This document shows, piece after piece, positions 14-55,900 of a stretch of 64,000 bases of DNA. The stretch is from contig CM000430.1 in the NCBI GenBank assembly GCA_000165345.1, positions 128,001-192,000 on the forward strand. Reading direction: 5' to 3'. Position numbers and translations under genes: made by a program. The notes under the pieces are model-generated. The model was given only the letters and a program-made list of their open reading frames with translations. It had not been told where the DNA came from and did not search any database. The first letter of the stretch is position 1. Each line of letters starts with the position of its first letter.

Positions 14-5557
<5,544 letters not shown>

Positions 5558-6424: not shown

Positions 6425-7912
6425 ATGAAACCAGAAACTAATATTAAAGAGGTAGGTTTAGATTTATTTTTAATACATTAAATTGGCTATTTATACGTCA
6501 TAAATGTGAATATTTATATACTAATAATTAATTTCCTTATTATTTATTTGAATTCTTGAAAACTTATTGAAAAACAGGAACAGAAACAGAATATAAATGG
6601 TAATAACTCAAATAATAGCGATAATGAATATATGAAATATGTAGCTTTGTTCTGTTTAATCATTCAAACAGTGGCAGTAATTTTCTTTATGAGGATTTCT
6701 CGTATTAAAAAGTCAGAAAATGATGAATTATATTTTAATTCTTGTGCTGTGGTAATGTCAGAAATCCTCAAGCTTTTAAGTTCATTATTAATAGTATTAT
6801 ATTCTAATAATTTTAATATGGTTGAATTTTACAATACATTGAGATTTGAAGTATTTAACTCATTTAAAACTAATATTCTTGTAGGTGTTCCTGGGCTGCT
6901 CTATGTTGTCCAGAATAACTTACTATTTATTGCATTGTCAAATCTATCAGGAGCAGTATACCATGTTACTTATCAACTTAAGATCCTTGCAACGGCAATA
7001 TTATCAGTTATTATATTGAATAAACAACTTTCAAAAATAAGATGGTTGTCTTTACTTTTACTTACAATTGGAGCAGTACTAGTACAAACAGGAAAATCAT
7101 CGGAGTCAAAAACTCCAAATAACTCAGGTTTAGTTGCTGAAAATACTGACAATTTTTTGGGTCTTTGTTCAGTTTTATTAGCATGCTTTACCAGTGGTTT
7201 GGCAGGAGTTTTTGTTGAGAAACTTTTAAAAGATAGTAAAACCAGTATTTGGGGTAGAAATGTACAGCTTGCTTTGTATGGTATAATTTTTGGATTAATT
7301 GGATGCCTTACAGGAAAAGAAGGATTAGAAATTTCTCAAAAAGGTTTCTTTTTTGGATTCAACACTCTTGTTTGGTTTGTTATTATATTACAAGCTATTG
7401 GAGGAATTATTGTTGCTGCTGTGCTTAAATATGCCGATAACATCCTAAAATGCTTTGGTAATTCGTTTAGTATTATTATGAGCTGTATTCTATCCTGGTA
7501 TCTTGGTGATTATAGCATTACGCTAAATTTCTTTGCTGGTTCAGTTCTTGTAATTTGGTCAATATTTATTTATGGACTTGAAAGAGCTTTTCCTTGCTCT
7601 GAATATCTTCTCAAACTTAAACTAATTTTAAAAAGGAATTCCAGAAACAAAATTATTGCTAAATACAAGAATCTTAGAGAATCTAGCTCGGAAGCTTCTT
7701 TTGACTTTAATGACCAAAACTCTGGAACCAGGAATAATCATCTAAACAGCTTGAATAATCAAAATAAAAATAGCAATATACTGAGCAATAGCAAATTTAA
7801 GAATATCAATAACTTTATCAATCAGCAAAACCAAAATAGAGATAATTATGGCGAAATTGATGATGTTATACCAAAAGGTCTTCAGATGGCAATCATTTCT
7901 TCTGGTGTTTAA
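6425..7912 (+). CDS. Nucleotide-sugar transporter (SLC35 / UDP-Gal / CMP-Sia transporter family), proposed two exons 6425..6451 and 6578..7912
   Basis: The main ORF 6632..7912 has about 10 TM segments and the typical NST core (LLYVVQNNLLFIALSNL ... YQLKILATAILSVIILNKQLS ... LLLLTIGAVLVQ). The ORF stays open upstream of 6632 with no stop. An upstream ATG at 6425 (MKPETNIKE) is followed by a GTAGGT donor at 6452, and an acceptor AAAAACAG ends at 6577. This joins in frame, giving 18 extra codons before MKYVA. Confidence 0.75.
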
Positions 7913-7989
7913 ATACTCTTTTAATCTATTTTGAAGAATTATCTTCCCATGTTTAACTAAATTATTACTTCAATTCAACTAAACATATA

Positions 7990-8095
7990 TTTTATACAAC
8001 CCGCACCAACTCCATGAAATAATTGACTTCGCATGCACCATTGCAATGCATGCTCGAATTTTCGTGGAAGCGGGTCCAATGTGGACAAATATATA
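7990..8095. other. GC-rich structured island in a convergent 3'-3' spacer: ACCCGC ... GCATGCACC ... GCAATGCATGC ... GCGGGT-CCAATGTGGACAAAT
   Basis: ACCCGC/GCGGGT inverted repeats bracket about 75 nt containing two GCATGC boxes. Possible ncRNA or structured DNA element. Not a tRNA. Confidence 0.35.
8078..8092 (+). promoter_or_regulatory. AATGTGGACAAATAT dispersed motif copy (others at 1205..1220 minus, 1266..1275 plus, 18468..18485 minus, 52642..52658 plus)
   Basis: Five copies of the ATGTGGACAA 10-mer were read in 64 kb. Two share 15 of 16 nt. Confidence 0.5.
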
Positions 8096-8329
8096 ATTAA
8101 TATATATAGTTTTACTATTTGCTTTCTTCTTAGTTATAGATTCGTTCTTTTACTAAATTTTCTTCCGAAAGTTTTAGCTGAAAACTGCTAATTAGTATCT
8201 CTAGAATGGCTTTCTATATAAGAACTACTAAAAATAAAAAAAAATAAAAAATTGTTATTCATTATATAAACTTAGTGACTGATATCGTAAATCTAGCTAA
8301 AGTATTTCACTGATAGCTATAAAAAATAT

Positions 8330-8412
8330 ATTTGCCGCCTTTTCGGTGTGGGGAGGGAAGTCGTTACATAGAAAAGGTCACCTGGCCCGTTGGGCGGGCT
8401 CTCGAATTAAAT
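8330..8412. other. Second GC-rich island in the same spacer (GCCGCCTTTTCGGTGTGGGGAGGG ... GGTCACCTGGCCCGTTGGGCGGGCTCTCG)
   Basis: Local GC is far above the 30% background. Holds a GCCCG-TTGG-GCGGGC palindrome. Candidate small RNA or regulatory element. Confidence 0.3.
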
Positions 8413-8514
8413 AGAGTAAAAGTCAACCAGAACATTTCTTCCCTCTTGAATCCTAATTTACTTGGTTGATATCAAAGAATGAAAAGGAATTAAACTTCAA
8501 ATGATGAAAGTTGT

Positions 8515-10218
8515 TTACTCGTTTCCTTGTTGGTTCTCTACGGGTTTTACTTTAATGTAGTCATCAATACGGAGAAGCGTGATTGCAGCTTCTGTTGCAA
8601 ATCTTAAAGACTTAAGTTTGCTGATAGTTGGTTCCAAAACTCCTGCTTGGACATTATCTCTTACTGTTCCATTAATTAAATCAAGCCCAAAAAATTTGTA
8701 TTTATCTTGATCTTGAGATTTTACTGTTAAATCTGAAGAAGTTGGTTTAGTAGCATAGTTATTGAGTTGTCCTTGTTGGGCGCTTGCATGGTATGCTCTA
8801 AGTCTAGCAACCAAGTCTGTTGCATCTTTAGCGGAATTAATTGCCAAAGTTTTAGGAATAACCAAAAGTGCCTCAGCAAATTCCGCAATTGCAAGCTGTT
8901 CTCTAGACCCAAGAGTGCGAGCAAAGTCTTCTAAGTAAATACTCAAAGCAGCCTCCACTGCTCCTCCTCCTGCAACATATCCATTTGACTCTAAAAGCTT
9001 AGATACGGAACACAAAGCATCATTTAGAGAGCGCTCAAGCTCATCTAATAGAACCTCATTTGCTCCTCTTAATACAATTGAGGCTGCTCTATGAGTCTTG
9101 CAACCAAGGAACATCATATAATCAGTGTCTCCAATACGTTCTTCTCTTACTTCTTGGCATTCTCCAAGATAAGCCGGGTCAAATGATTCCTCTGAATCCT
9201 CTAATTGTGCCATTGTAAGGCAGATTGTCGCTCCTGTTGCCTTGGCAATTCTTCTTAAATCAACCTTCTCTACCCTTCTAACTGCAATACAACCAGCTGA
9301 GACAAAATATTTCATGCATTGATCATCAATACCCCCTGAAGTCAAAACTACATTACAACCTGTAGCCAAAATCTTTTCAATACGTTTGTGAATTACTTCC
9401 TTCTCTTCCAGTCTAATCCTTGCAAGTTCTTTTGGATCTTCCAATTCAACACGAATACCCATTTGCATTCTGTATTGTTTTAAAGGAAAGTCTATACATG
9501 CAATTTTGACATTTTTTACAGACGTTGGCATTCCCTGGCAAGCTCTACCTGTATGGGAGAGAGCATAACCCTCAACCAAAAATGACTCTGATAAACCTTT
9601 ACCATGAGTTTTTAATATGTTCAAAGATTTTACTGGATACTTGACAGCTCCTGTTAAGGGGTCTGTAGCCTTTACTGTCATTATTGAATCTACTACCAAC
9701 TTCCCAAAAAACTCTGAGTCTGCTCCTGCTAGCTTTGATGATAGCACAGTTTTAGCAACATTAAGGCAGCATTCCTCACTAATTGTCTCATTAATAGATA
9801 AAGACCCAGAAATATATCTCACACACTCCTTTAGAGCCAACTTATAACCAGAAATTACATTTGAAGGATGAGACCCATTGCTAACTAAAGATGTACCTCT
9901 CCTTAGTAACTCAGCAGCTAATAAAACTACAGATGTTGTGCCATCCCCCACTTCCTTGTCCTGTAGCTCACTCAAATCTACTAGTACTCGCCCAGCTGGG
10001 TGCTTTACTTCCAATTGGCTTAAAATTGTAGCACCATCATTAGTTACTATTACTTCGCCCACCTCATCAACAAGCATCTTATCCAACCCTTGGGGTCCCA
10101 ATGACGACTTTAATATATTTGCTATCGACATTACTGCTGTCAAATTATTAGACCTCACATCACTCCCATGTTGTCGCTCTCCGTGAATTGATTGATCCTG
10201 AGATGGTTTTGCCAACAT
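8515..10218 (-). CDS. TCP1: T-complex protein 1 alpha subunit (CCT1/TCP-1 alpha chaperonin)
   Basis: 567 aa. Group II chaperonin motifs GPQGLDKMLVDEVGEVIVTNDGATIL, EVGDGTTSVVLLAAELL and the VAGGGAVE apical/equatorial signature. Confidence 0.9.
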   Translation of the reverse strand: MLAKPSQDQSIHGERQHGSDVRSNNLTAVMSIANILKSSLGPQGLDKMLVDEVGEVIVTNDGATILSQLEVKHPAGRVLVDLSELQDKEVGDGTTSVVLLAAELLRRGTSLVSNGSHPSNVISGYKLALKECVRYISGSLSINETISEECCLNVAKTVLSSKLAGADSEFFGKLVVDSIMTVKATDPLTGAVKYPVKSLNILKTHGKGLSESFLVEGYALSHTGRACQGMPTSVKNVKIACIDFPLKQYRMQMGIRVELEDPKELARIRLEEKEVIHKRIEKILATGCNVVLTSGGIDDQCMKYFVSAGCIAVRRVEKVDLRRIAKATGATICLTMAQLEDSEESFDPAYLGECQEVREERIGDTDYMMFLGCKTHRAASIVLRGANEVLLDELERSLNDALCSVSKLLESNGYVAGGGAVEAALSIYLEDFARTLGSREQLAIAEFAEALLVIPKTLAINSAKDATDLVARLRAYHASAQQGQLNNYATKPTSSDLTVKSQDQDKYKFFGLDLINGTVRDNVQAGVLEPTISKLKSLRFATEAAITLLRIDDYIKVKPVENQQGNE

Positions 10219-11269: not shown

Positions 11270-12103
11270 TTAATTCTTGAAGATCTTTGTCATCCTCCTG
11301 AGAGCTGAAGAAACCAAATGCACTGGAGTCCTAATTAAATCGCCAATCGCTCCTCCGTTAGTGGTTCCATGATCTGATTCAGCATCATTTGCAGCCATTA
11401 ATGATGAAATTGGTGTTGATGAGTAAGAAAGTCTTGAAGTTCTTGTAGGAGTTCTTAAGCTTGAATCACCTCCATTCTTTGCATCAACTTTCATTGAATT
11501 CTTTCTTGCTGTTAAGGAAGTTGCTGAAGCTGGTAGTTTTTTTAGTTTAGAAGATGATGATGAAGTCTTTGACTTGGGCTTTGTTGCCTTTTCAGTGGAA
11601 GCTGACTTCTTTTCCTTACTATTAGCCTTCGATATCTTGTTTTCCTTTAAATTACTCTCTGGTTTCTTTTTTTTATTTCCGGTTGATATTTCCTTAACAA
11701 TATTGTCCAAAATCTTGTTTTTTGCAACTTCACTCTTTGTGACCTTCTTAGTACTTGATGAGACACCCTTCTTAACTATTTCACTGATAGCTTTGGCTTC
11801 TGATCCCTTTGATTTAATTATCTTGTGATTCAGAATTTCTCCTCCCTTTTTGCTTGTCTTGCTAATTGTCTTCTTAACTACAGGTTTTACGGTTCCCTGC
11901 TCTTTTTTAATAGGATGCGAATTTGAAGCCTTAGTCGTTGCTATTGATGATTTTGACAACGAGCTTTTGCGAGACTTTGAAGATGATAAAGAAGTTGATT
12001 TTGGGGTTTCCTTCTTTACTGAAATCTTACTAGACTTTGAATTACAGCTCTTGGAAGCAGTTTTGCAGATAGACTTCTTTGAATCTGTTGAGCAACCACT
12101 CAT
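11270..12103 (-). CDS. Lys/Ser-rich basic low-complexity protein (hypothetical, possibly nuclear)
   Basis: 277-aa ORF with an ATG start. Composition is dominated by K, S and T (SKKS, KSKTSSSSSKLKK). The antisense ORFs 11574..12107 are mirror artefacts of the low-complexity sequence. Confidence 0.45.
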   Translation of the reverse strand: MSGCSTDSKKSICKTASKSCNSKSSKISVKKETPKSTSLSSSKSRKSSLSKSSIATTKASNSHPIKKEQGTVKPVVKKTISKTSKKGGEILNHKIIKSKGSEAKAISEIVKKGVSSSTKKVTKSEVAKNKILDNIVKEISTGNKKKKPESNLKENKISKANSKEKKSASTEKATKPKSKTSSSSSKLKKLPASATSLTARKNSMKVDAKNGGDSSLRTPTRTSRLSYSSTPISSLMAANDAESDHGTTNGGAIGDLIRTPVHLVSSALRRMTKIFKN

Positions 12104-15749: not shown

Positions 15750-15855
15750 TTTATAGATCATATTTGCAAATACATAAGTATATAATTTAACTTGACTACC
15801 TTAGCTATTTCTTTTCCTTTCATCGTTTTTTTTATATTCTACAAGCAATGACTAA

Positions 15856-15867
15856 TTGGCGCCAAAA
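15856..15867. promoter_or_regulatory. Perfect palindromic E2F-type site TTGGCGCCAAAA
   Basis: Direct read. Lies in a convergent 3'-3' spacer, an unusual place for a promoter element. Confidence 0.45.
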
Positions 15868-16650
15868 TCATTTCCATGCAATACTTCCCGCCTTGTTTTT
15901 TATTTTAAAAGTTATTCATTGCCTCCAAATTAATTTTGTAACTATTCTTTAGTATCTTTTTTTTAGTAAAAAATATAATCATTGTTATAGTTTTTTTGAA
16001 ATAAAAATCAACATTGTCAACCTAAGTGTTTTCTAGTACTTTTCAAACTTGTACATGTGTTATCCACCACAAGCTACTTCAACCCTTCAATCACTTTACT
16101 CACTATTTTGTGTGGGGGAAAAATGCACACGTAATATGCATGCAAGTTGTAAATAAATAGAGAAAAAAAACTAAAATTGTAGATAAAAATAATTAACTCT
16201 CTTATATTATCACTACAATCTACTGTGCATTATTCACCCCTTCTACATGAAGTATTTAATATACTATTTATAAATCTACATATCCCAAAATGAATAACTC
16301 CAAGAAAGTAATATCCAAAATAAGAAGAGTAAGTGCTTAGTACTTTAAAATGATTACCATTCTTCATCATTTAATTCATTTGCTTGTAACAATAGCCATT
16401 AGCAACTTAATGTATTAATTATTCTTCTTAAAAACTAATAATATTAGCATTCTTCAACTTATGGCACTTTTCCCTGATCTAATTTATGTCTGAATATCAT
16501 TTATACTATATAGTTCATTTTCTATTATCAATATTGATTATATTATTATGCCTCAACATAAACTCTCCTCTCTCTCGCCCCACTCAAAAAAAAAAACTAG
16601 TCTTAATGAAAGATTAAATTCTGACTCGAGATTATCACTTATTCTTCTTT

Positions 16651-17670
16651 TTACTTTTTGTTAATAATCAATGAACCTATACAAGTTGCTAAGATCATTA
16701 ATCCTACAGTTCCAACGATCTTAAGGAAAGCTTCGCGTGATAAATGTTTAGCTCCCTTCTTGAATGTTAATTCAATCATCTCTAAAGCAGGTAATTCATC
16801 GCCAGCAATACCTTGGAATGATAAAGATGGAGATGGTAATTGAGTATTAATTGGTGATAATTCAACTTGATTACCATTTTGAATGATATATGGAACCATC
16901 TTGCTACCATCAACCTTAAATGAGCAATAAGAATCACAGTTCAAGAAAGTAGTACCTTCAATAGTTGAGTTGTATGTACCCCTATTTTGACCACTAATTA
17001 CAAGCTCAACATGAGTATCCAAAATAAGTTGTTGAACCTTCTTTAACGAAGAATCGATTGAATATGAAGAAGCCAAGTATTTGTTTCCAACTACAACAGT
17101 GAAATCATGATGTTTATGACCATAGTGTAAAGTTGCATTCAAATTTTGGAAGGCTTGTTCAGAAACTTTGTGGTCTGGGAAAGAGCTGGAAAGAATAAAA
17201 GTATCAATGAATACAAATAAAACAGTACCATCTCTTCTAGATAACACATTTGAAGTATCAGTATAGTGTGAAACATAATGATAAAAGTAATTTGGGAAAC
17301 TAAATCTTGGGAAAATATCATTATTGCTATCATAAGTTACATTATTTCTCTTCAATAGCAAGTTAGCATTCCCATTATCCCAATCAGCTTGACCCATTGC
17401 TGCGAACAATGGAATCTGGAGAGATTTTTCTGAGTAAATATTCTCAAAACAATGTTTGAAATCAATTCCACCAGGAAAGTTATCTCCAGGACTAACCAAT
17501 AATGAGAATGGAGTCTTCTCTGCTTGGGCTTTTAAAACAGAAGCTACCTTTTTTTGGTTTCCAGAACATCCATAATTTGATAATGATGCAAAATATAATT
17601 CTCCATTAACTCTATTTGAACTAACAAATATACACAAAACGATTCCAAAAACTAGAAGTAATGCTCTCAT
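16651..17670 (-). CDS. Calcineurin-like metallophosphoesterase / type-5 acid-phosphatase-like protein with signal peptide and C-terminal TM anchor (metal-binding motifs partly degenerate)
   Basis: N-terminal signal MRALLLVFGIVLCIFVSS. Motif remnants PGDNFPGGID (GDNFY-like), AMGQADWDNGN, HKHHDF (GHDH-like). C-terminal hydrophobic LMILATCIGSLII. Confidence 0.45.
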   Translation of the reverse strand: MRALLLVFGIVLCIFVSSNRVNGELYFASLSNYGCSGNQKKVASVLKAQAEKTPFSLLVSPGDNFPGGIDFKHCFENIYSEKSLQIPLFAAMGQADWDNGNANLLLKRNNVTYDSNNDIFPRFSFPNYFYHYVSHYTDTSNVLSRRDGTVLFVFIDTFILSSSFPDHKVSEQAFQNLNATLHYGHKHHDFTVVVGNKYLASSYSIDSSLKKVQQLILDTHVELVISGQNRGTYNSTIEGTTFLNCDSYCSFKVDGSKMVPYIIQNGNQVELSPINTQLPSPSLSFQGIAGDELPALEMIELTFKKGAKHLSREAFLKIVGTVGLMILATCIGSLIINKK

Positions 17671-18786
17671 CCTTTTATTAAAATATAAACAGTTGCTTTC
17701 ACTTTTTGTAATATTGTTTTATATAAGACTATAATTTTTCTTTTTCGGTAATGTGTTTCTTACTCACAATTTTTAATTAATATTTGGCTATTCAATAACC
17801 CAATAGTGGAATTCTTTAAATTCGATATTTATACTTAATTCCTAATTTTATTATTTAAAAAAAAAAAAAACCTACCTTTTTTACCTTTTCAAAATAATAA
17901 AAATGTCTTTTTTCCTTATAATATGCTTGCTTCCACCTTTTGATTAAGCCTCACACTATTTATAAACCTTGTTCCTCATTACAAAAATCAAATCTGTATG
18001 CAAGCACATCTACATACATTATTGACGACATTACGTCATTACAAATGGATCAAGTCTCCATGTACCCCATTTTACATACATTAACGTTTTGTCCTCACAA
18101 CTTTAAAAATTTAACATATGTCTCGTTTTCTTTTTTTGAATACTGTTAAATATTCGTGTTTTTTTTTTACGATCTCTTTAATTGATTTTTAACAGTTAAA
18201 TCTATTAAGATGAAAATTCTTTCTCATTTTCTTATTTTTCAATATTCCTCATCATTATCCGCATGCACAATTTTTCCCCAATTTGATGCGTGTGCACTGT
18301 GTCTTTTTTGTGAAATTTTATAACACTTAATTTTTGATATCAAGGCTTTTTTTTAATTAATTGAATCAAATATATTCGAATACAATTATCTAAATTCAAG
18401 CAGTATTTGAATCTTCATTTCAAGAATTTTGAATCCATCTTTTTTTTCCTAAAAATATGTGATAATTTGTTTGTCCACATAAGTGGGATATAGAAAAAAA
18501 ATTATGAAAGAGGGGAAAAATGCACGTAGAAAAATTAATAAATAGGAGAAAAAATTATAGCCAAGGGCTTGATTAGTAAAATATATTCATCAACGTAAAT
18601 TCAATATGCCTAATTATTGCATATATGTATAGAAGTAACGTAATTTGTTAATTTTCTTTTGCATCTTTCTCATTGCAATTTTGTAATTTTGAATTAATGA
18701 ATTTGATTTACAAATCATTGTCTTTTTTTTACCCTATTTGTTTTTACTCTTTTATTGATATTAATTAAAAAACCAATTACGTGTTG

Positions 18787-18806
18787 TTGGCGCCTACTTA
18801 TGTGGG
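18787..18806. promoter_or_regulatory. Bipartite TTGGCGCC-N5-ATGTGGG element
   Basis: ttggcgcctacttatgtggg, 350 bp upstream of the SUN-domain gene, in a divergent promoter. Confidence 0.5.
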
Positions 18807-19154
18807 TTAAATTACATGCAATTTATGCAAGTATGACAGTTGTAAAAGTCATGCAGTATCAAAAGTGTGATTTCTAGAATTTAATAAAGAATAAATCGTT
18901 AAATTATTATTTTGTTAATTGGAAGTAAACTATTGAGATTTTGAAATAATTATAAAAATGAATAAATTGTTAATTTTTCTATGAATATATTTCGGGGAAA
19001 AAATGACTCAAAGATGGTTAAACCTATAAAATAAGAAAATCCTAAATAAATTAAAACCTATTAAATAATTAATATTAAATTTAACGGAAAGTTTTGTTTG
19101 AGTAATGAATTAAAAAGAAACTTACAATACTTATGAAAACGTATTTATGTATGT

Positions 19155-30194: not shown

Positions 30195-30480
30195 ATTAGC
30201 AAACAGTAATAATTCAAACTATCTGAAACAAAATATTGTTTTTCCTCCTTCTCCCTTCCCTCTGTTTCCTTCTTTAAGAAAAAAAAACAATTTTCTACAT
30301 TCACTTTAAAGTAATTTCCTTGACTGATTTTCATTTGTTGAAAAAGCGCTTCCCGCCTTTTGTGTGCATTATTCATAATACAAAATTACTAATAGTAATA
30401 ATAATAATGTTTTCCTTTAATTTACATAATAGGGCAAAACATAGTTGAAATAAAAATAATGTAATACAAATATGTAATAT

Positions 30481-30498
30481 ATATATATATATATATAT
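30481..30498. repeat. (AT)9 dinucleotide microsatellite
   Basis: atatatatatatatatat in the 3'-3' spacer. Confidence 0.9.
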
Positions 30499-31511
30499 TT
30501 AGCTATATTCTGCGATTTCTTTAATTCAGTCTATTTTATACAAGTTTTACTCTCTTTCTCTTTCTTTTATCAAAAAAAGAAAAAAAAATTCAATTGATAT
30601 AAGTCATATTTAAGACAAAAACTGTTGTTGACTGTATTTAATCCTTTCTTATTTTTTATATTTTTCCCAAAAAAAAACTTCATGTGGAAATTGAAAGATA
30701 TGGGGGTAGTGTAACTTTCATTAATAAATTTAACATAGTAATTATGGATTAATTAAGAAATAATATTAATTACTTAGTAATAATTTAACCAAATTAAATA
30801 AGTAGATATATATTTATGTATTAATATAAATCAATAAATCTAACAATTAAGAATAATTAAGTATTTCTTGATTCATGCCAATATTTGTTTTCATCAATTT
30901 ATATATCACCAGAAATATCTCTTATTTCCTTTTCTTATATATATCATAATAACTTTATATTAACAAAAAAAAAAGAAAAAGAATACATTCACAAATATTT
31001 TCTATTATCATATAACATAAAATATCTGTAACGTTATATTAATATTTGATTTCGAAACCAAAAAAAGACTTGGAGCTTCGAAAATATTTTCCAAAGAAAA
31101 GGAATTAAAAAAAAAAATTAAACAACCTCTATTTTTTGACTCCATTTCATCCCACCATTAGTTAATCAAATTAGGAAAAAACTACACCATTATTTATCCT
31201 GAATTATTCCCTTTTCTCTTCTATTCAAAACCCAAATAAAACAAAGAACAAAAGGAAACAAAAAAAAAAAAAAATACCACGCAATTATAAATTTGGTTGC
31301 ATGCAAAATTATAATATTGACCCCCCTTCCTTTCTTTCTTTTTTCCCGCCTTTCCCCTTTATTTAACTTGAATAATTTAATATTAATTTTCATGTAAATT
31401 AATATTAAAATTAATATTGATATAAGAAAATCACAAAAATTTGATTAATTTAGAATTGCATTCTGTTAAAAAAAATGTTTCCCTTCTTTTTAACAATAAA
31501 AACTACTATTA

Positions 31512-52152: not shown

Positions 52153-52603
52153 TTTCAGAATCTTATTCTATCTTTATTTATAGGCTTACAATGATTAGCT
52201 AACTTGTTGCTTTCACACAGAACTTTTTAAAACTTGAGTAGAGTAAACAAACTTCTAAATTTTTGTACATTAACTTTTATTTCTATTTGTTTATTTTCCT
52301 GATACTTATTTTATTAATAAATCAGCATCACAAAACATGTCAAAATGACGTAATAGGCGCCGCGAATTACCCGCCACGGCCTTGTTTTCATGTTGACATT
52401 TTAAAAGAAAATATTTTTCATGGGGGTAATATTTTTGGCAAGTGAAAGGTTTAATAAAATGATATTAAATTTTGTCAATTTACTTAGTATTCTATGCCTC
52501 TATATTTAGTTGTAAATATTCCGGAAAATTATATTAATTATTTTAAATCAGCAAAATTTAATTAAATCTCATTAGGAGTTTTTGTTTAATTTCATGCATT
52601 TTT

Positions 52604-52693
52604 TTGCATGCATGACTGGTTATTCTTTTTTGAATTAAAATTTAATGTGGACAAATATTTAGTACCGGTGTATTAGTAATGCGCATGCATGTG
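52604..52693. promoter_or_regulatory. Motif cluster upstream of the LCCL gene: TGCATGCATG, AATGTGGACAAAT, GCGCATGCATG
   Basis: tttgcatgcatgactgg ... ttaatgtggacaaatat ... aatgcgcatgcatgtg, 210-300 bp upstream of the ATG at 52906. Confidence 0.55.
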
Positions 52694-52905: not shown

Positions 52906-55900
52906 ATGAGTGCTACTCAGGGAAAAGCAGAATATGGAAAAAAGAGAGTGAGTACTATTATTAAGGCTTTGGCATGGATTGCAATAGTGTGTCTAGTTAA
53001 AAATGCAAGCTCAGAGGGATTATCTGGAGAGAAAAGGCATATTTCTAAGGACTATTGTAGAGCAGTCCCATTAGATGGATTTGCAGATTTTGCTGAATGC
53101 GCACCTCCAAGCAATGAAGCAGAATACACTATTGAAGTGGTCCCAGTGGTCGCATCTGGAATCGATTTAAGAAGTGAGGTAGATATAGTTTTATATGGAG
53201 GTGATGATACACAGACATCCCCAATTCCAATTTCATCGTCAATAACAGGTACTGTTAGATCTTTAAGTACAAAACAATTGGATATTGGAGCTCCACAGCA
53301 AGTCGGAATATTCTTAAAGAGTAATACAAGGTGGAAGTGTTTAAAGATTACTGTTGTTAAAGATTATAGATATTGGGTATTCTCATGTAATGGAGAACTT
53401 ACTCCTCAACACCGTTCATTGACTTATGGAGTTACTGGAAATAAATTATATACTGCAAGCATTATGACAGGAAAGAGTGGTGAAGCAGGAACAAAAGGTG
53501 GAGTAGAAATTAGCATTTCAGGAGAAGCTGGTCAAAGTGATAAGATTTTACTCAAACAAGGATTTTACTCTTCAACTTTGAGGAGGATGCTTTTCAGAGC
53601 TGCAGATGTTGGAAAGATTAAGGAAATTAGTTTAACAAATACAGCTTTAGATGATCCGTGGTACTGTGAGTATGTTAGAATTCAGTCTGAGGATGGTGAA
53701 AGTATCGACTTTACCGTTAGAAGATGGATTGGAAGGCCATTCTCTCAGATGGTAACACTAACAAACAGTATATCTGGGTCAGAAAACTCTCCTGCTCAAG
53801 ATATTGACTGCAATACCAGAGCAATTGATATTGTCCCAAGAGCTCCAGTTACTACAATTACTTTCAAAGTCAAATGCCCAGTAAATTGTGGTTCAGAAAA
53901 GTTTGCAACCATTTATGGTACAGGAATTCATGCAGCTTCATCTTCAATCTGTAAATCTGCGATATTTGACAATATTCTAACTCCTTCAGGAGGAGAGTTA
54001 GTACTAACAATAGTCCCAAGTTTACCAAAATATTTTGGTGGAAAGGGTGCATACTCTATAGAATCTTCAGATTTCTTCCCAAAGCCTGGAAGTGAAATTT
54101 TTAGCTTCTATACATATTTGAGTGACTCTATTGACTTTATACAGTCTGAAGTCAGAGTCGTTGATTCTACAGGTAACTTGGCATCTTCTGGTAGGCTTGA
54201 AGTCAGAAGAAATGGTATTTGGGGAAGCGTTTCATTAAAGGGAGAATCTACTGTAACTAATGAACTTGCTGCTACACTTGCATGCAAACAATTAGGTTAC
54301 TCATTTGGATCCATTCTTCCTTCTTGCACATATGTTAATGGAGGTAACGTTTGTACTCCGAAAGGATACCCAATCTCTGTTGCTGGATTACAATGTAATG
54401 GAAATGAAATCGATATTGCTCAGTGTATGTTCGAGGAACCAAAGACTACTAATAGCATGACAACTGTTGCCATACAGTGCAGTTCAATTGCTCCAAAAGA
54501 TACGATGCATGGAGCTCTCAGAATTGTTGATTCCACCGGTGTACCTTCAAGAACAGGAGCAGGAAGACTACAAGTTTATATGGATGGATGGGGATCAGTA
54601 TGTAGTGATGGTTTTAATAGTGTTTCTGAAAGAGTTGCATGTACACAAATGGGATACTCTGGAGTTAAAAATGGAGGAGCTTCAACTAAAAGTTGTAAAG
54701 ACTTTGGAGGCGAAGATGTATGCGGAAGTGAACAAGAACAAATTCTTATGGTAGATGTTGCATGTAAGGGTGACGAAGAAAAGCTTGTCAACTGTCAGCA
54801 CTACTCATCAAATAATATTTACTGTGTACATGAGGAAGATGTTGTTGTAAGCTGCTCAGGATCAGGTGACCCAACAGGTAATGGTGCCTATTTATCTGAA
54901 AAGTCTCCGTCAATCCTGCCATCTATTCCATACAATAAGTACCAATTCGACTGTAATGACAGTCCTGTAAGTATTAAAGGTGCTGTAGGTACAGGTGCAA
55001 TCATTGCATGTCCATCAAAATGTTCTAAAGCATCTTCTCACATTAAGGGAAGCTATATCTACTCTGACGATACTCCTGTATGTAAGGCTGCCATTCATGC
55101 AGGTATTATCACTGATGAAGTTGGAGGAGAAGTTGTTATTACCTTTGTATCTGGTCAGAAACAGTACTTTGGAAGCTTTAACAATGGAATTCAAAGTAGA
55201 AGTATTGAAACAAGCGCCTCTAAATCAAAGATTAGAGGCTCAGATTTAGCTTCTATAAGATCCTTCACTATTTCAAAGCTTTCAGCAACAATTAACAGAA
55301 GAGAAAATGATTTCAGTCAACAAATTGTTAATGAAGAGCTTCCAGCTATTTCTCCCCCAGTATTATCATGGGTCTGCCCAACAGACTATCCTGGATTCAG
55401 AGGTGGAAAGAATGACTTTATTGATGCCACTAACTTACCAGGAGGTGATAGAATCAGCTCTCTAGATGATTTTACTATCTCTGCTAGAGTTCTCATTACT
55501 GGTGGACAAGGTACCTGGAGAACTATTATGGCACATACTGAATGCTTGGGTATATCATTATACATTGATAGAGACAACACTATTCATTTTGATCAATTAT
55601 GTAATTCTGATACTGTCTCAACTTCATATGCACCAGCTATTAACGAATGGTTATTCTTAACTGTTGCATACAACTTTAATGAAAAGAGAGTTGTAATGTA
55701 TATAAATGGTAACGAAGTTGCTAATAAGGTAACAGGTTTTGTTTTCAATCTCAAGACTAAGCTAATAATTGGAAGAAGTTCAGATTCTGACAGTGAATAC
55801 TTCTTGGGCCAAATTTCTAATGTTAATATATGGGATAAATTCTTCACTCCAAGTGAGGTCAAATCTGCTATGGAGAAATCTTGGCATCAAAAAGGAATAT

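Follow-up and report, generated by a model that had tools for sequence, protein, structure and literature searches.

Several short motif families are over-represented upstream of Cryptosporidium parvum genes, including the ApiAP2 motif BGCATGCAH, which is bound by cgd2_3490 (Oberstaller et al. 2013, PMC3734150, Table 1), and, from the same study, the G-box-like DTGTGGGG and the E2F-like DTTGSCGCCH and TTTGGCGGGAAV. A scan of the 100 bp upstream of 396 C. parvum lncRNAs identified E2F, ApiAP2, T-run, and CCCATACCAGGTGGA motifs together with “Motif5”, TTGTCCACATK (Li et al. 2021, PMC7840661, Table S3). In that study, the 100 bp preceding the lncRNAs contain E2F and ApiAP2 motifs, and the lncRNAs tend to be located at the 3′ ends of genes (PMC7840661). 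A further catalog describes 79 is-ncRNAs, of which 43 are novel and intergenic and 15 of those are found only in close relatives of C. parvum (Li et al. 2022, PMC9465071).

Here we examine a 602-bp spacer on C. parvum chromosome 2, at positions 7913-8514 of a 64-kb window that comprises the whole stretch of DNA analyzed. The spacer separates the 3′ ends of a nucleotide-sugar transporter gene on the plus strand and a TCP-1 alpha gene on the minus strand, and the open reading frames (Table 1) agree with an earlier sequence-only reading in which both genes terminate there. The same TCP-1 alpha protein is encoded identically on chromosome-scale C. parvum records such as CP044421.1 of GCA_015245375.1, in which the spacer falls at about 849,750-850,360, and is named C. 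parvum TCP-1 alpha (CPATCC_000891). Other convergent spacers in the window measure 62, 101, and 110 bp; the 602-bp spacer is 5-10 times longer than these three shortest ones, none of which contains a match to the promoter-motif families. GC content in 60-nt windows peaks at 0.47 in island 1 (8000-8079) and 0.58 in island 2 (8340-8399), compared to 0.15-0.30 in the surroundings. Every element that the sequence-only reading had placed in island 1, namely ACCCGC/GCGGGT flanks around GCATGC boxes and an adjoining motif, is present, and the GCCCG-TTGG-GCGGGC palindrome of island 2 also lies in GC-rich sequence where it was reported. The island 1 repeat pairs CCATGAAA with TTTCGTGG and encloses GCATGC boxes at 8031-8036 and 8048-8053, while AATGTGGACAAAT occupies 8078-8090. 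With a probability of roughly 0.6, we read the islands as clusters of Pol II transcription-factor motifs that form an orphan promoter region between the convergent genes. By analogy with a mapped lncRNA promoter in the same window, they probably drive an unannotated non-coding transcript.

Table 1 Features of the convergent spacer and its flanking genes (window coordinates).
Feature	Position	Strand	Remark
Nuc_sug_transp ORF, nucleotide-sugar transporter	6632-7912	+	ends at spacer
Island 1 imperfect inverted repeat	7999-8075		ACCCGC 7999-8004 pairs with GCGGGT 8070-8075
AP2_1 box CGCATGCAC	8030-8038	+	full match to ApiAP2 BGCATGCAH
Second palindromic AP2-type box TGCATGC	8047-8053		sequence; conservation of ATGCATGCTCGAAT
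AATGTGGACAA	8078-8088	+	reverse complement of lncRNA-upstream Motif5 TTGTCCACATK
AT-only stretch ATATATAATTAATATATATA	8089-8108	+	between AATGTGGACAA motif and predicted start
Predicted transcription start window	8101-8136	+	from Table S3 motif offsets
Block B, AT-rich	8255-8331		TATATAAA box 8263-8270; TTAGTGA/TCACTGA imperfect inverted repeat; two TAGCTA boxes
E2F-like site TTTGCCGCCT	8331-8340	+	full match to DTTGSCGCCH
G-box-like site GTGTGGGG	8346-8353	+	full match to DTGTGGGG
GCCCG-TTGGG-CGGGC palindrome	8385-8399		GCCCG 8385-8389, (G)CGGGC 8394-8399; E2F-type core GGCGGG 8393-8398
AGTAAA poly(A)-signal match, TCP-1 alpha mRNA	8457-8462	-	53-58 nt past stop codon
Cpn60_TCP1 ORF, TCP-1 (CCT) alpha	8515-10218	-	ends at spacer

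The motif content of the spacer carries this assignment. Four full-length IUPAC matches of four different kinds (CGCATGCAC, AATGTGGACAA, TTTGCCGCCT, and GTGTGGGG) fall within the 602 bp, compared to an expectation of 0.026, and none of 2000 dinucleotide shuffles equals that number. None of the other 20 spacers of the window contains as many hits to these motif families. The same motifs are enriched in the window at large, where GCATGC occurs 18 times (4.2 expected), GGCGGG 13 times (1.1 expected), and ATGTGGACAA with at most one mismatch 12 times (4.8 expected; five of the 12 are exact). Open reading frames cover 66% of the window, and 12 of the 13 GGCGGG and 26 of the 31 SSCGCC occurrences lie outside them. 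Two of the five exact ATGTGGACAA sites are situated in divergent 5′-5′ spacers, adjoining GCATGC boxes, and the same promoter motifs occur with ATGTGGACAA at 52600-52690, upstream of the gene at 52906. The islands are ordinary for the C. parvum genome and composed of promoter motif families that are already known. The sequence-only reading had called promoter motifs unexpected where two genes converge, and promoter-type motifs do occur here without an annotated gene start, suggesting a transcription unit that has escaped annotation and is probably non-coding.

The closest counterpart of island 1 lies 7 kb away. When all 130-nt windows were tested, the best local match to island 1 was a cluster at 1195-1320 (score 56, compared to 22 ± 3.8 in shuffles) that contains CCCGCACC, GCATGC, GGCGGGTG, and two inverted copies of ATGTGGACAA. 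The published Cp_lnc_106(-) sequence starts with TCGCAACATTTTTTTGGGG, placing its 5′ end at window position 1175 on the minus strand with the cluster directly upstream; the Table S3 entries for this transcript, TTGTCCACATG at -99 and TTGTCCACATT at -42, fit the window coordinates exactly. Island 1 aligns to the cluster in the sense orientation of Cp_lnc_106. Moreover, the exact-core motif, written as ATGTGGACAA in the orientation of the transcript, starts between -23 and -58 in seven of eight Table S3 cases (PMC7840661), with Cp_lnc_106 at -42. Applied to island 1, these offsets predict a start near 8101-8136 on the plus strand.

In island 1, inverted GCGGG half-sites, which are E2F-like, flank a pair of ApiAP2-type TGCATGC boxes; next come AATGTGGACAA and then the AT-only stretch, which may serve as a TATA-like core element. 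In the arrangement we propose, island 1 together with island 2 makes up the promoter region. Island 1 would fire a non-coding transcript from the predicted start window, running toward the TCP-1 alpha gene and possibly antisense into it. Island 2, with its E2F site, G-box, and GGCGGG core, could together with block B form a second promoter of either direction, or could belong to a conserved portion of the island 1 transcript. As a promoter, this pair might fire antisense into TCP-1 alpha, or it might act on the minus strand through the TATATAAA box. We infer transcription at the islands, its direction, and its start site from the Cp_lnc_106 analogy.

A spacer transcript was also sought in the catalog of 396 lncRNAs (PMC7840661): of 13 strings taken from the spacer and from the neighboring 3′ end of TCP-1, none occurs among the FASTA entries listed. 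Cp_lnc_106 and Cp_lnc_107, which carry consecutive numbers, map to window positions 1175 and 18950 and so flank the spacer, and CPATCC_0008900, CPATCC_0008910, and CPATCC_0008920 are present only in the mRNA cluster list of the same supplement. Among Logan contigs that carry the flanking TCP-1 protein, none is short and transcript-like. One catalogued transcript, Cp_lnc_128, has an upstream 11-mer, AGCCCGCCCAA, that is the reverse complement of 8390-8400. Strings past its implied start are absent among the lncRNA FASTA entries listed and its identifier is off the positional numbering, so we regard this match as a coincidence of E2F-like sites. AP2 motifs are reportedly missing from sporozoite ATAC-seq peaks. 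This report counts against the promoter reading, as do the lack of a catalogued spacer lncRNA among the entries listed and the lack of islands in C. ryanae and the gastric species.

To place the islands in an evolutionary context, we compared the syntenic loci of C. hominis, C. meleagridis, C. ubiquitum, chipmunk genotype I, C. canis, C. felis, C. ryanae, C. andersoni, and C. serpentis, together with two Logan assemblies, L020 (nearly identical to C. parvum) and L021 (a distinct species). Identity to C. parvum at 4-fold sites of TCP-1 served as the neutral baseline and amounts to 0.86 in C. meleagridis, 0.73 in chipmunk genotype I, 0.63 in C. ubiquitum, and 0.34 in both C. canis and L021. Gene order around the spacer is conserved in every species compared. 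The spacer itself measures 410-609 bp in intestinal species (the L020 contig ends inside it), whereas C. ryanae has just 109 bp. The spacers of C. andersoni and C. serpentis span 791-871 bp with 21-23% GC and contain no islands. A search for the islands in C. ryanae and these two gastric species found none, nhmmer and blastn detected no relocated copies of the conserved blocks at the C. ryanae, C. andersoni, C. serpentis, and C. felis loci, and a 24-base pattern from island 1 returned no match when metagenomes were scanned for it.

The GC islands are real and partly conserved, and not noise. The 3′ half of island 1 (8030-8100) retains an identity of 0.65 in C. canis and 0.66 in L021, compared to 0.34 at 4-fold sites. 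The 5′ half of the island 1 hairpin falls to 0.25 and 0.03 in the same two genomes, and the 5′ arm is missing in L021. Block B, which the sequence-only reading overlooked, is the best-conserved stretch of the spacer, at 0.77 compared to a baseline of 0.63 in C. ubiquitum and 0.55 compared to 0.34 in C. canis. Island 2 is conserved in the closest clade only (0.73-0.74), dropping to 0.20-0.25 outside it, and is unrecognizable in C. canis, L021, and C. felis. The sequence just after the predicted start (8101-8254) scores 0.46 in C. ubiquitum, below the 0.63 baseline; its poor conservation indicates that the post-start transcript sequence is not under constraint and weighs against the promoter reading. 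In syntenic spacers, conservation is seen for the island 1 core and block B and not for the 5′ half of the hairpin, and C. ryanae and the gastric species lack the islands.

Conservation tracks the motifs and not the arms of the hairpin. The run kept in island 1 reads GCATGC ... ATGCATGCTCGAAT ... GGCGGG ... TGTGGACAA, and the segment from GCATGC through TGTGGACAA is preserved in six intestinal lineages. GCATGC, GCGGG, and TGTGGACA are all found in C. parvum, C. hominis, C. meleagridis, chipmunk genotype I, C. canis, and L021, and mostly in C. ubiquitum; the GCATGC core of the first AP2 box is present in most of the aligned species. ATGCATGCTCGAAT is the same in C. parvum, C. hominis, C. meleagridis, and L021; the chipmunk genotype I and C. 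canis versions each differ by one change. The GTGGAC of AATGTGGACAA is invariant in all seven aligned sequences. In island 2, the E2F site and G-box are retained in the five closest species: the E2F position reads TCCCCGCCTTT in C. meleagridis, which is still E2F-like, and the G-box occurs in C. hominis, C. meleagridis, and chipmunk genotype I, while C. ubiquitum has it in the form ATGTGGGG. Across five species, the island 2 palindrome has one pair changed on both sides (C. ubiquitum) and one pair broken (C. meleagridis).

The sequence-only reading had proposed that the islands are unannotated small RNAs, either Pol III/snRNA-type genes or the promoters of such genes, and had found no match to tRNA, U1-U6, 5S, or SRP consensus by eye. 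Covariance-model and tRNA searches bear out the latter point. ARAGORN identified no tRNA or tmRNA in the whole 64-kb window, no Rfam covariance model reached its gathering score in the window, and at E ≤ 10 the only matches in 7600-8900 were two chance ones, both within the TCP-1 coding region. T4 runs, the possible Pol III terminators that the earlier reading had wanted checked downstream, lie inside the islands on the plus strand, at 8059 in island 1 and at 8340 in island 2, making a Pol III transcript that spans either island on that strand unlikely; an A4 run at 8372 is likewise a T4 run on the minus strand of island 2. Together with the unconserved hairpin and the low structure conservation described below, these results indicate that the islands are probably not structured Pol III/snRNA-type genes. 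What stands of the original proposal is the presence of promoter-type motifs, which match Pol II families and not Pol III/snRNA ones and suggest an unannotated, probably non-coding, unit; the idea of the islands as folded small-RNA genes is not supported.

We also considered individual RNA families. An H/ACA snoRNA would feature a hairpin-hinge(ANANNA)-hairpin-ACA arrangement with a large pseudouridylation pocket and an ACA 3 nt from the 3′ end. Island 1 instead forms a single hairpin with internal loops of just 2-4 nt and stems that are not conserved, and the nearest ACA (8085-8087) starts 10 nt past the stem and belongs to the conserved TGTGGACA DNA motif. C/D box snoRNAs carry a C box (RUGAUGA) near the 5′ end, a D box (CUGA) near the 3′ end, and a terminal stem; the sole RTGATGA in the spacer is at 8501 on the plus strand, beside the TCP-1 stop codon, with none near the islands on either strand. 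The annotated C/D snoRNA of chromosome 2, cgd2_3583, probably lies elsewhere, judging from its chromosome position and orientation. CUUUUACUAAA at 8147-8157 resembles loop I of U5 snRNA, a likeness we attribute to chance since neither C. meleagridis nor C. ubiquitum has the same sequence. By eye, GGGAAGUCG in island 2 looks like the CR-I element of RNase P/MRP; it does not fit the GNAANNUCNGNG pattern, however, and no covariance model matches it. The telomerase repeat unit is TTTAGG, and inspection of the spacer by eye revealed no template for it.

Among the alternatives to the promoter reading, an unlikely one is that the conserved blocks encode a small or intermediate-size ncRNA restricted to the C. 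parvum-like clade (C. parvum, C. hominis, C. meleagridis, and C. ubiquitum). Such a gene would lie outside Rfam, would correspond to the island 1 hairpin or to block B plus island 2 (roughly 8255-8420), and would use island 1 with its little-studied TGTGGACA element as promoter; its product might belong to the unassigned intergenic is-ncRNAs described by Li et al. 2022 (PMC9465071). The thermodynamics of island 1 in C. parvum favor this possibility: the plus strand folds at -34.5 kcal/mol with z = -4.5, and none of 200 shuffles is as stable. The orthologues, however, give weak z-scores (-2.2, 0.0, -1.1, -1.0, and -2.2), L021 folds differently and lacks the 5′ arm of the hairpin, and island 2 is unremarkable (z = -2.2 on the plus strand and -1.3 on the minus strand). 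RNAz-type criteria ask for a z clearly below -2 along with a high SCI across species. Island 1 yields an SCI of 0.34 on the plus strand and 0.06 on the minus strand with a mean z of -1.6, and block B plus island 2 yields 0.59 and 0.41 with mean z values of -1.0 and +0.2; both fall short on both counts, and the RNAalifold covariation term is unfavorable at +1.12. Imposing the C. parvum hairpin on seven sequences leaves 82% of cells paired, compared to 79% in column shuffles, with four double-sided pair changes, compared to 2.1 in shuffles (58/500), and a covariation score of 0.151, compared to 0.119 (19/500), all from only seven sequences and a structure derived from one of them. Shuffle controls of 9/500 to 58/500 are in the range documented for unstructured related sequences. 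There is no positive evidence for conserved RNA structure on either strand of island 1 or of block B plus island 2.

Other evidence for an ncRNA comes from the extent of conservation and its distribution among species. Block B and island 2 form about 165 nt of continuous conservation in C. parvum, C. hominis, C. meleagridis, C. ubiquitum, and chipmunk genotype I, and block B by itself contributes approximately 75 nt that are nearly continuous, which is long for a promoter and weighs against our preferred reading. We retain the ncRNA as an unlikely candidate because 15 is-ncRNAs (PMC9465071) are confined to the same close relatives of C. parvum as island 2. Against it stand the empty Rfam (E ≤ 10) and tRNA searches, and the T4 and A4 runs, which would stop Pol III within the islands.

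It is quite unlikely that the islands are instead structured or protein-binding elements of 3′ UTRs or of 3′-end formation, with island 1 as part of the transporter mRNA and island 2 as part of that of TCP-1 alpha. Both islands do lie 80-185 nt beyond a stop codon on the strand that would be transcribed, and the plus strand, sense for the transporter, is the one on which island 1 forms its more stable hairpin. The poly(A) signal consensus of C. parvum is A(A/G)TAAA (bioRxiv 10.1101/2025.01.17.633476). The first such signal on the plus strand occurs at 8233, with none from 7913 up to that point, and the transporter mRNA may therefore well extend across island 1. The promoter and transporter 3′ UTR readings of island 1 can coexist in so compact a genome. 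On the TCP-1 alpha side, the AGTAAA signal just past the stop codon is conserved (its complement, TTTACT, is found in four of five close species), which probably leaves island 2 outside the 3′ UTR. Nor are such islands needed for 3′-end formation, since three other convergent gene pairs in the window have spacers of just 62-110 bp that lack these motifs, and the orthologous C. ryanae pair has one of 109 bp. In addition, structure is not conserved, and the motifs match promoter families, including the cluster upstream of the mapped lncRNA 5′ end.

Very improbable is a lack of present function, with the islands as GC-rich patches that arose by chance, or as the decaying remains of a lost gene, within a spacer of unusual length: the 5-10-fold excess over the three shortest convergent spacers, the shrinkage in C. 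ryanae, and the unrecognizable island 2 of C. canis, L021, and C. felis would fit, but the island 1 core and block B stand well above the 4-fold baseline where synonymous sites are saturated (0.65 vs 0.34), four specific published motifs occur where 0.026 are expected, interspecies indels are not multiples of three, and none of the small ORFs in the spacer (52 aa, 45 aa, and 13 aa after the predicted start) is conserved between species.

The promoter reading has a practical use in annotation. A long, motif-dense 3′-3′ spacer flags a putative transcription unit that is missing among the listed entries of the 396-lncRNA catalog, here probably a non-coding or antisense RNA beside a chaperonin subunit gene. 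The TTGTCCACAT / ATGTGGACAA motif is conserved here at an orthologous site in at least six Cryptosporidium lineages, is paired with AP2 boxes, and has a preferred position and orientation with respect to lncRNA 5′ ends; these properties make it a reasonable candidate transcription-factor site. In the literature searched, the motif appears only in a supplementary table, with no named binding factor. Cross-species support for the TGTGGACA element as a candidate regulatory site is a mildly interesting by-product. The general view of Cryptosporidium gene regulation is unchanged by these findings.

Compared to known systems, the islands share with Pol III/snRNA-type genes (tRNA, 5S, U6, SRP, RNase P/MRP, and U1-U5) a GC-rich composition in AT-rich surroundings, the ability to form a hairpin, and a nearby TATA-like box (8263-8270), but differ in having no covariance-model or ARAGORN match and in carrying T4 runs internally. 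Like the is-ncRNAs of PMC9465071, they are intergenic, fall in the 70-200 nt length range, and are conserved only in close relatives of C. parvum; they differ in showing no conserved-structure signal. The AP2_1, E2F, and G-box families of PMC3734150 were defined upstream of coding genes, whereas this spacer adjoins no coding-gene start, yet it matches IUPAC motifs 1, 2, and 3 of that set, which in the window are mostly intergenic. Cp_lnc_106 is an antisense lncRNA with RNA-seq support and a mapped 5′ end, whereas the island 1 transcript is a prediction; the Cp_lnc_106 promoter also sits inside a coding region rather than in a 3′-3′ spacer, and it holds two copies of the TGTGGACA motif where island 1 has one. 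On the same chromosome, however, both display a CCCGCACC/GCGGGT inverted pair, GCATGC boxes, and AATGTGGACAA followed by an AT-only run, with a (ATT)n run in the Cp_lnc_106 promoter at the place occupied in island 1 by the AT-only stretch 8089-8108.

The spacer between the convergent transporter and TCP-1 alpha genes differs widely among Cryptosporidium species. The C. andersoni and C. serpentis spacers are 90% identical to one another, and their comparison with the two GC-rich islands of C. parvum revealed no similarity. Together with the 109-bp C. ryanae spacer, these island-free spacers indicate that the islands constitute an extra element specific to intestinal C. parvum-like lineages. The C. 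ryanae record fuses the transporter with the large upstream gene in a single 2195-aa model (L010 5832-9722, minus strand); since the ORF listing gives a distinct 375-aa transporter ORF at L010 5832-6959, the fusion probably reflects a mistake in annotation.

Within the C. parvum spacer, the 11-mer CUUUUACUAAA at 8147-8157 (plus strand), approximately 30-40 nt downstream of the predicted transcription start, resembles the invariant loop I of U5 snRNA. It is not kept in C. meleagridis or C. ubiquitum, and we therefore judged the likeness to be a chance match.

Spacers and motif-bearing features (locus-numbered positions refer to the syntenic loci, all others to the window)
Feature	Position	Strand	Details
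Convergent-pair spacer, C. ryanae	L010 5723-5831		109 bp
Convergent-pair spacers, C. andersoni; C. serpentis	L011 5699-6489; L018 5699-6569		791-871 bp, 21-23% GC
Motif cluster	1195-1320		within large plus-strand ORF 14-5557
Partial block B copy	11746-11792	+	within minus-strand ORF 11270-12103
Exact ATGTGGACAA	18471-18480	-	same strand as Cp_lnc_107, ~130 nt past its 3' end
Cp_lnc_107 (published lncRNA)	18950-18609	-	inside divergent spacer 17671-19154
GCATGCA - ATGTGGACAA - GCATGCA array	52600-52690	+	~250 bp upstream of plus-strand ORF starting 52906

Block B, the conserved AT-rich stretch between the islands (8255-8331), has a partial copy elsewhere in the window. This copy ends in a 16-mer, TATTTCACTGATAGCT (11777-11792), that matches block B exactly, and also contains CTTAGT.ACTTGAT with nearly the same spacing as at 8270-8318. 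The likeness may be coincidental or may stem from a motif pair that both sites share.

E2F, AP2, and G-box motifs also occur in two other long "convergent" spacers, 15750-16650 (901 bp) and 30195-31511 (1317 bp), with five matches each. These may likewise harbor hidden unannotated transcription units or small exons.

The ATGTGGACAA copy near Cp_lnc_107 lies approximately 800 nt upstream of a minus-strand ORF starting at 17670. Given the array ahead of the ORF at 52906, TGTGGACA is present in an apparent mRNA promoter too, and not solely upstream of lncRNAs. In the motif cluster at 1195-1320, ATGTGGACAA is present twice, as inverted copies, alongside CCCGCACC, GCATGC, and GGCGGGTG. This cluster sits immediately upstream of the 5' end (1175, minus strand) of the published antisense transcript Cp_lnc_106 (Li et al. 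2021, PMC7840661), where it appears to form an intragenic promoter within coding sequence.
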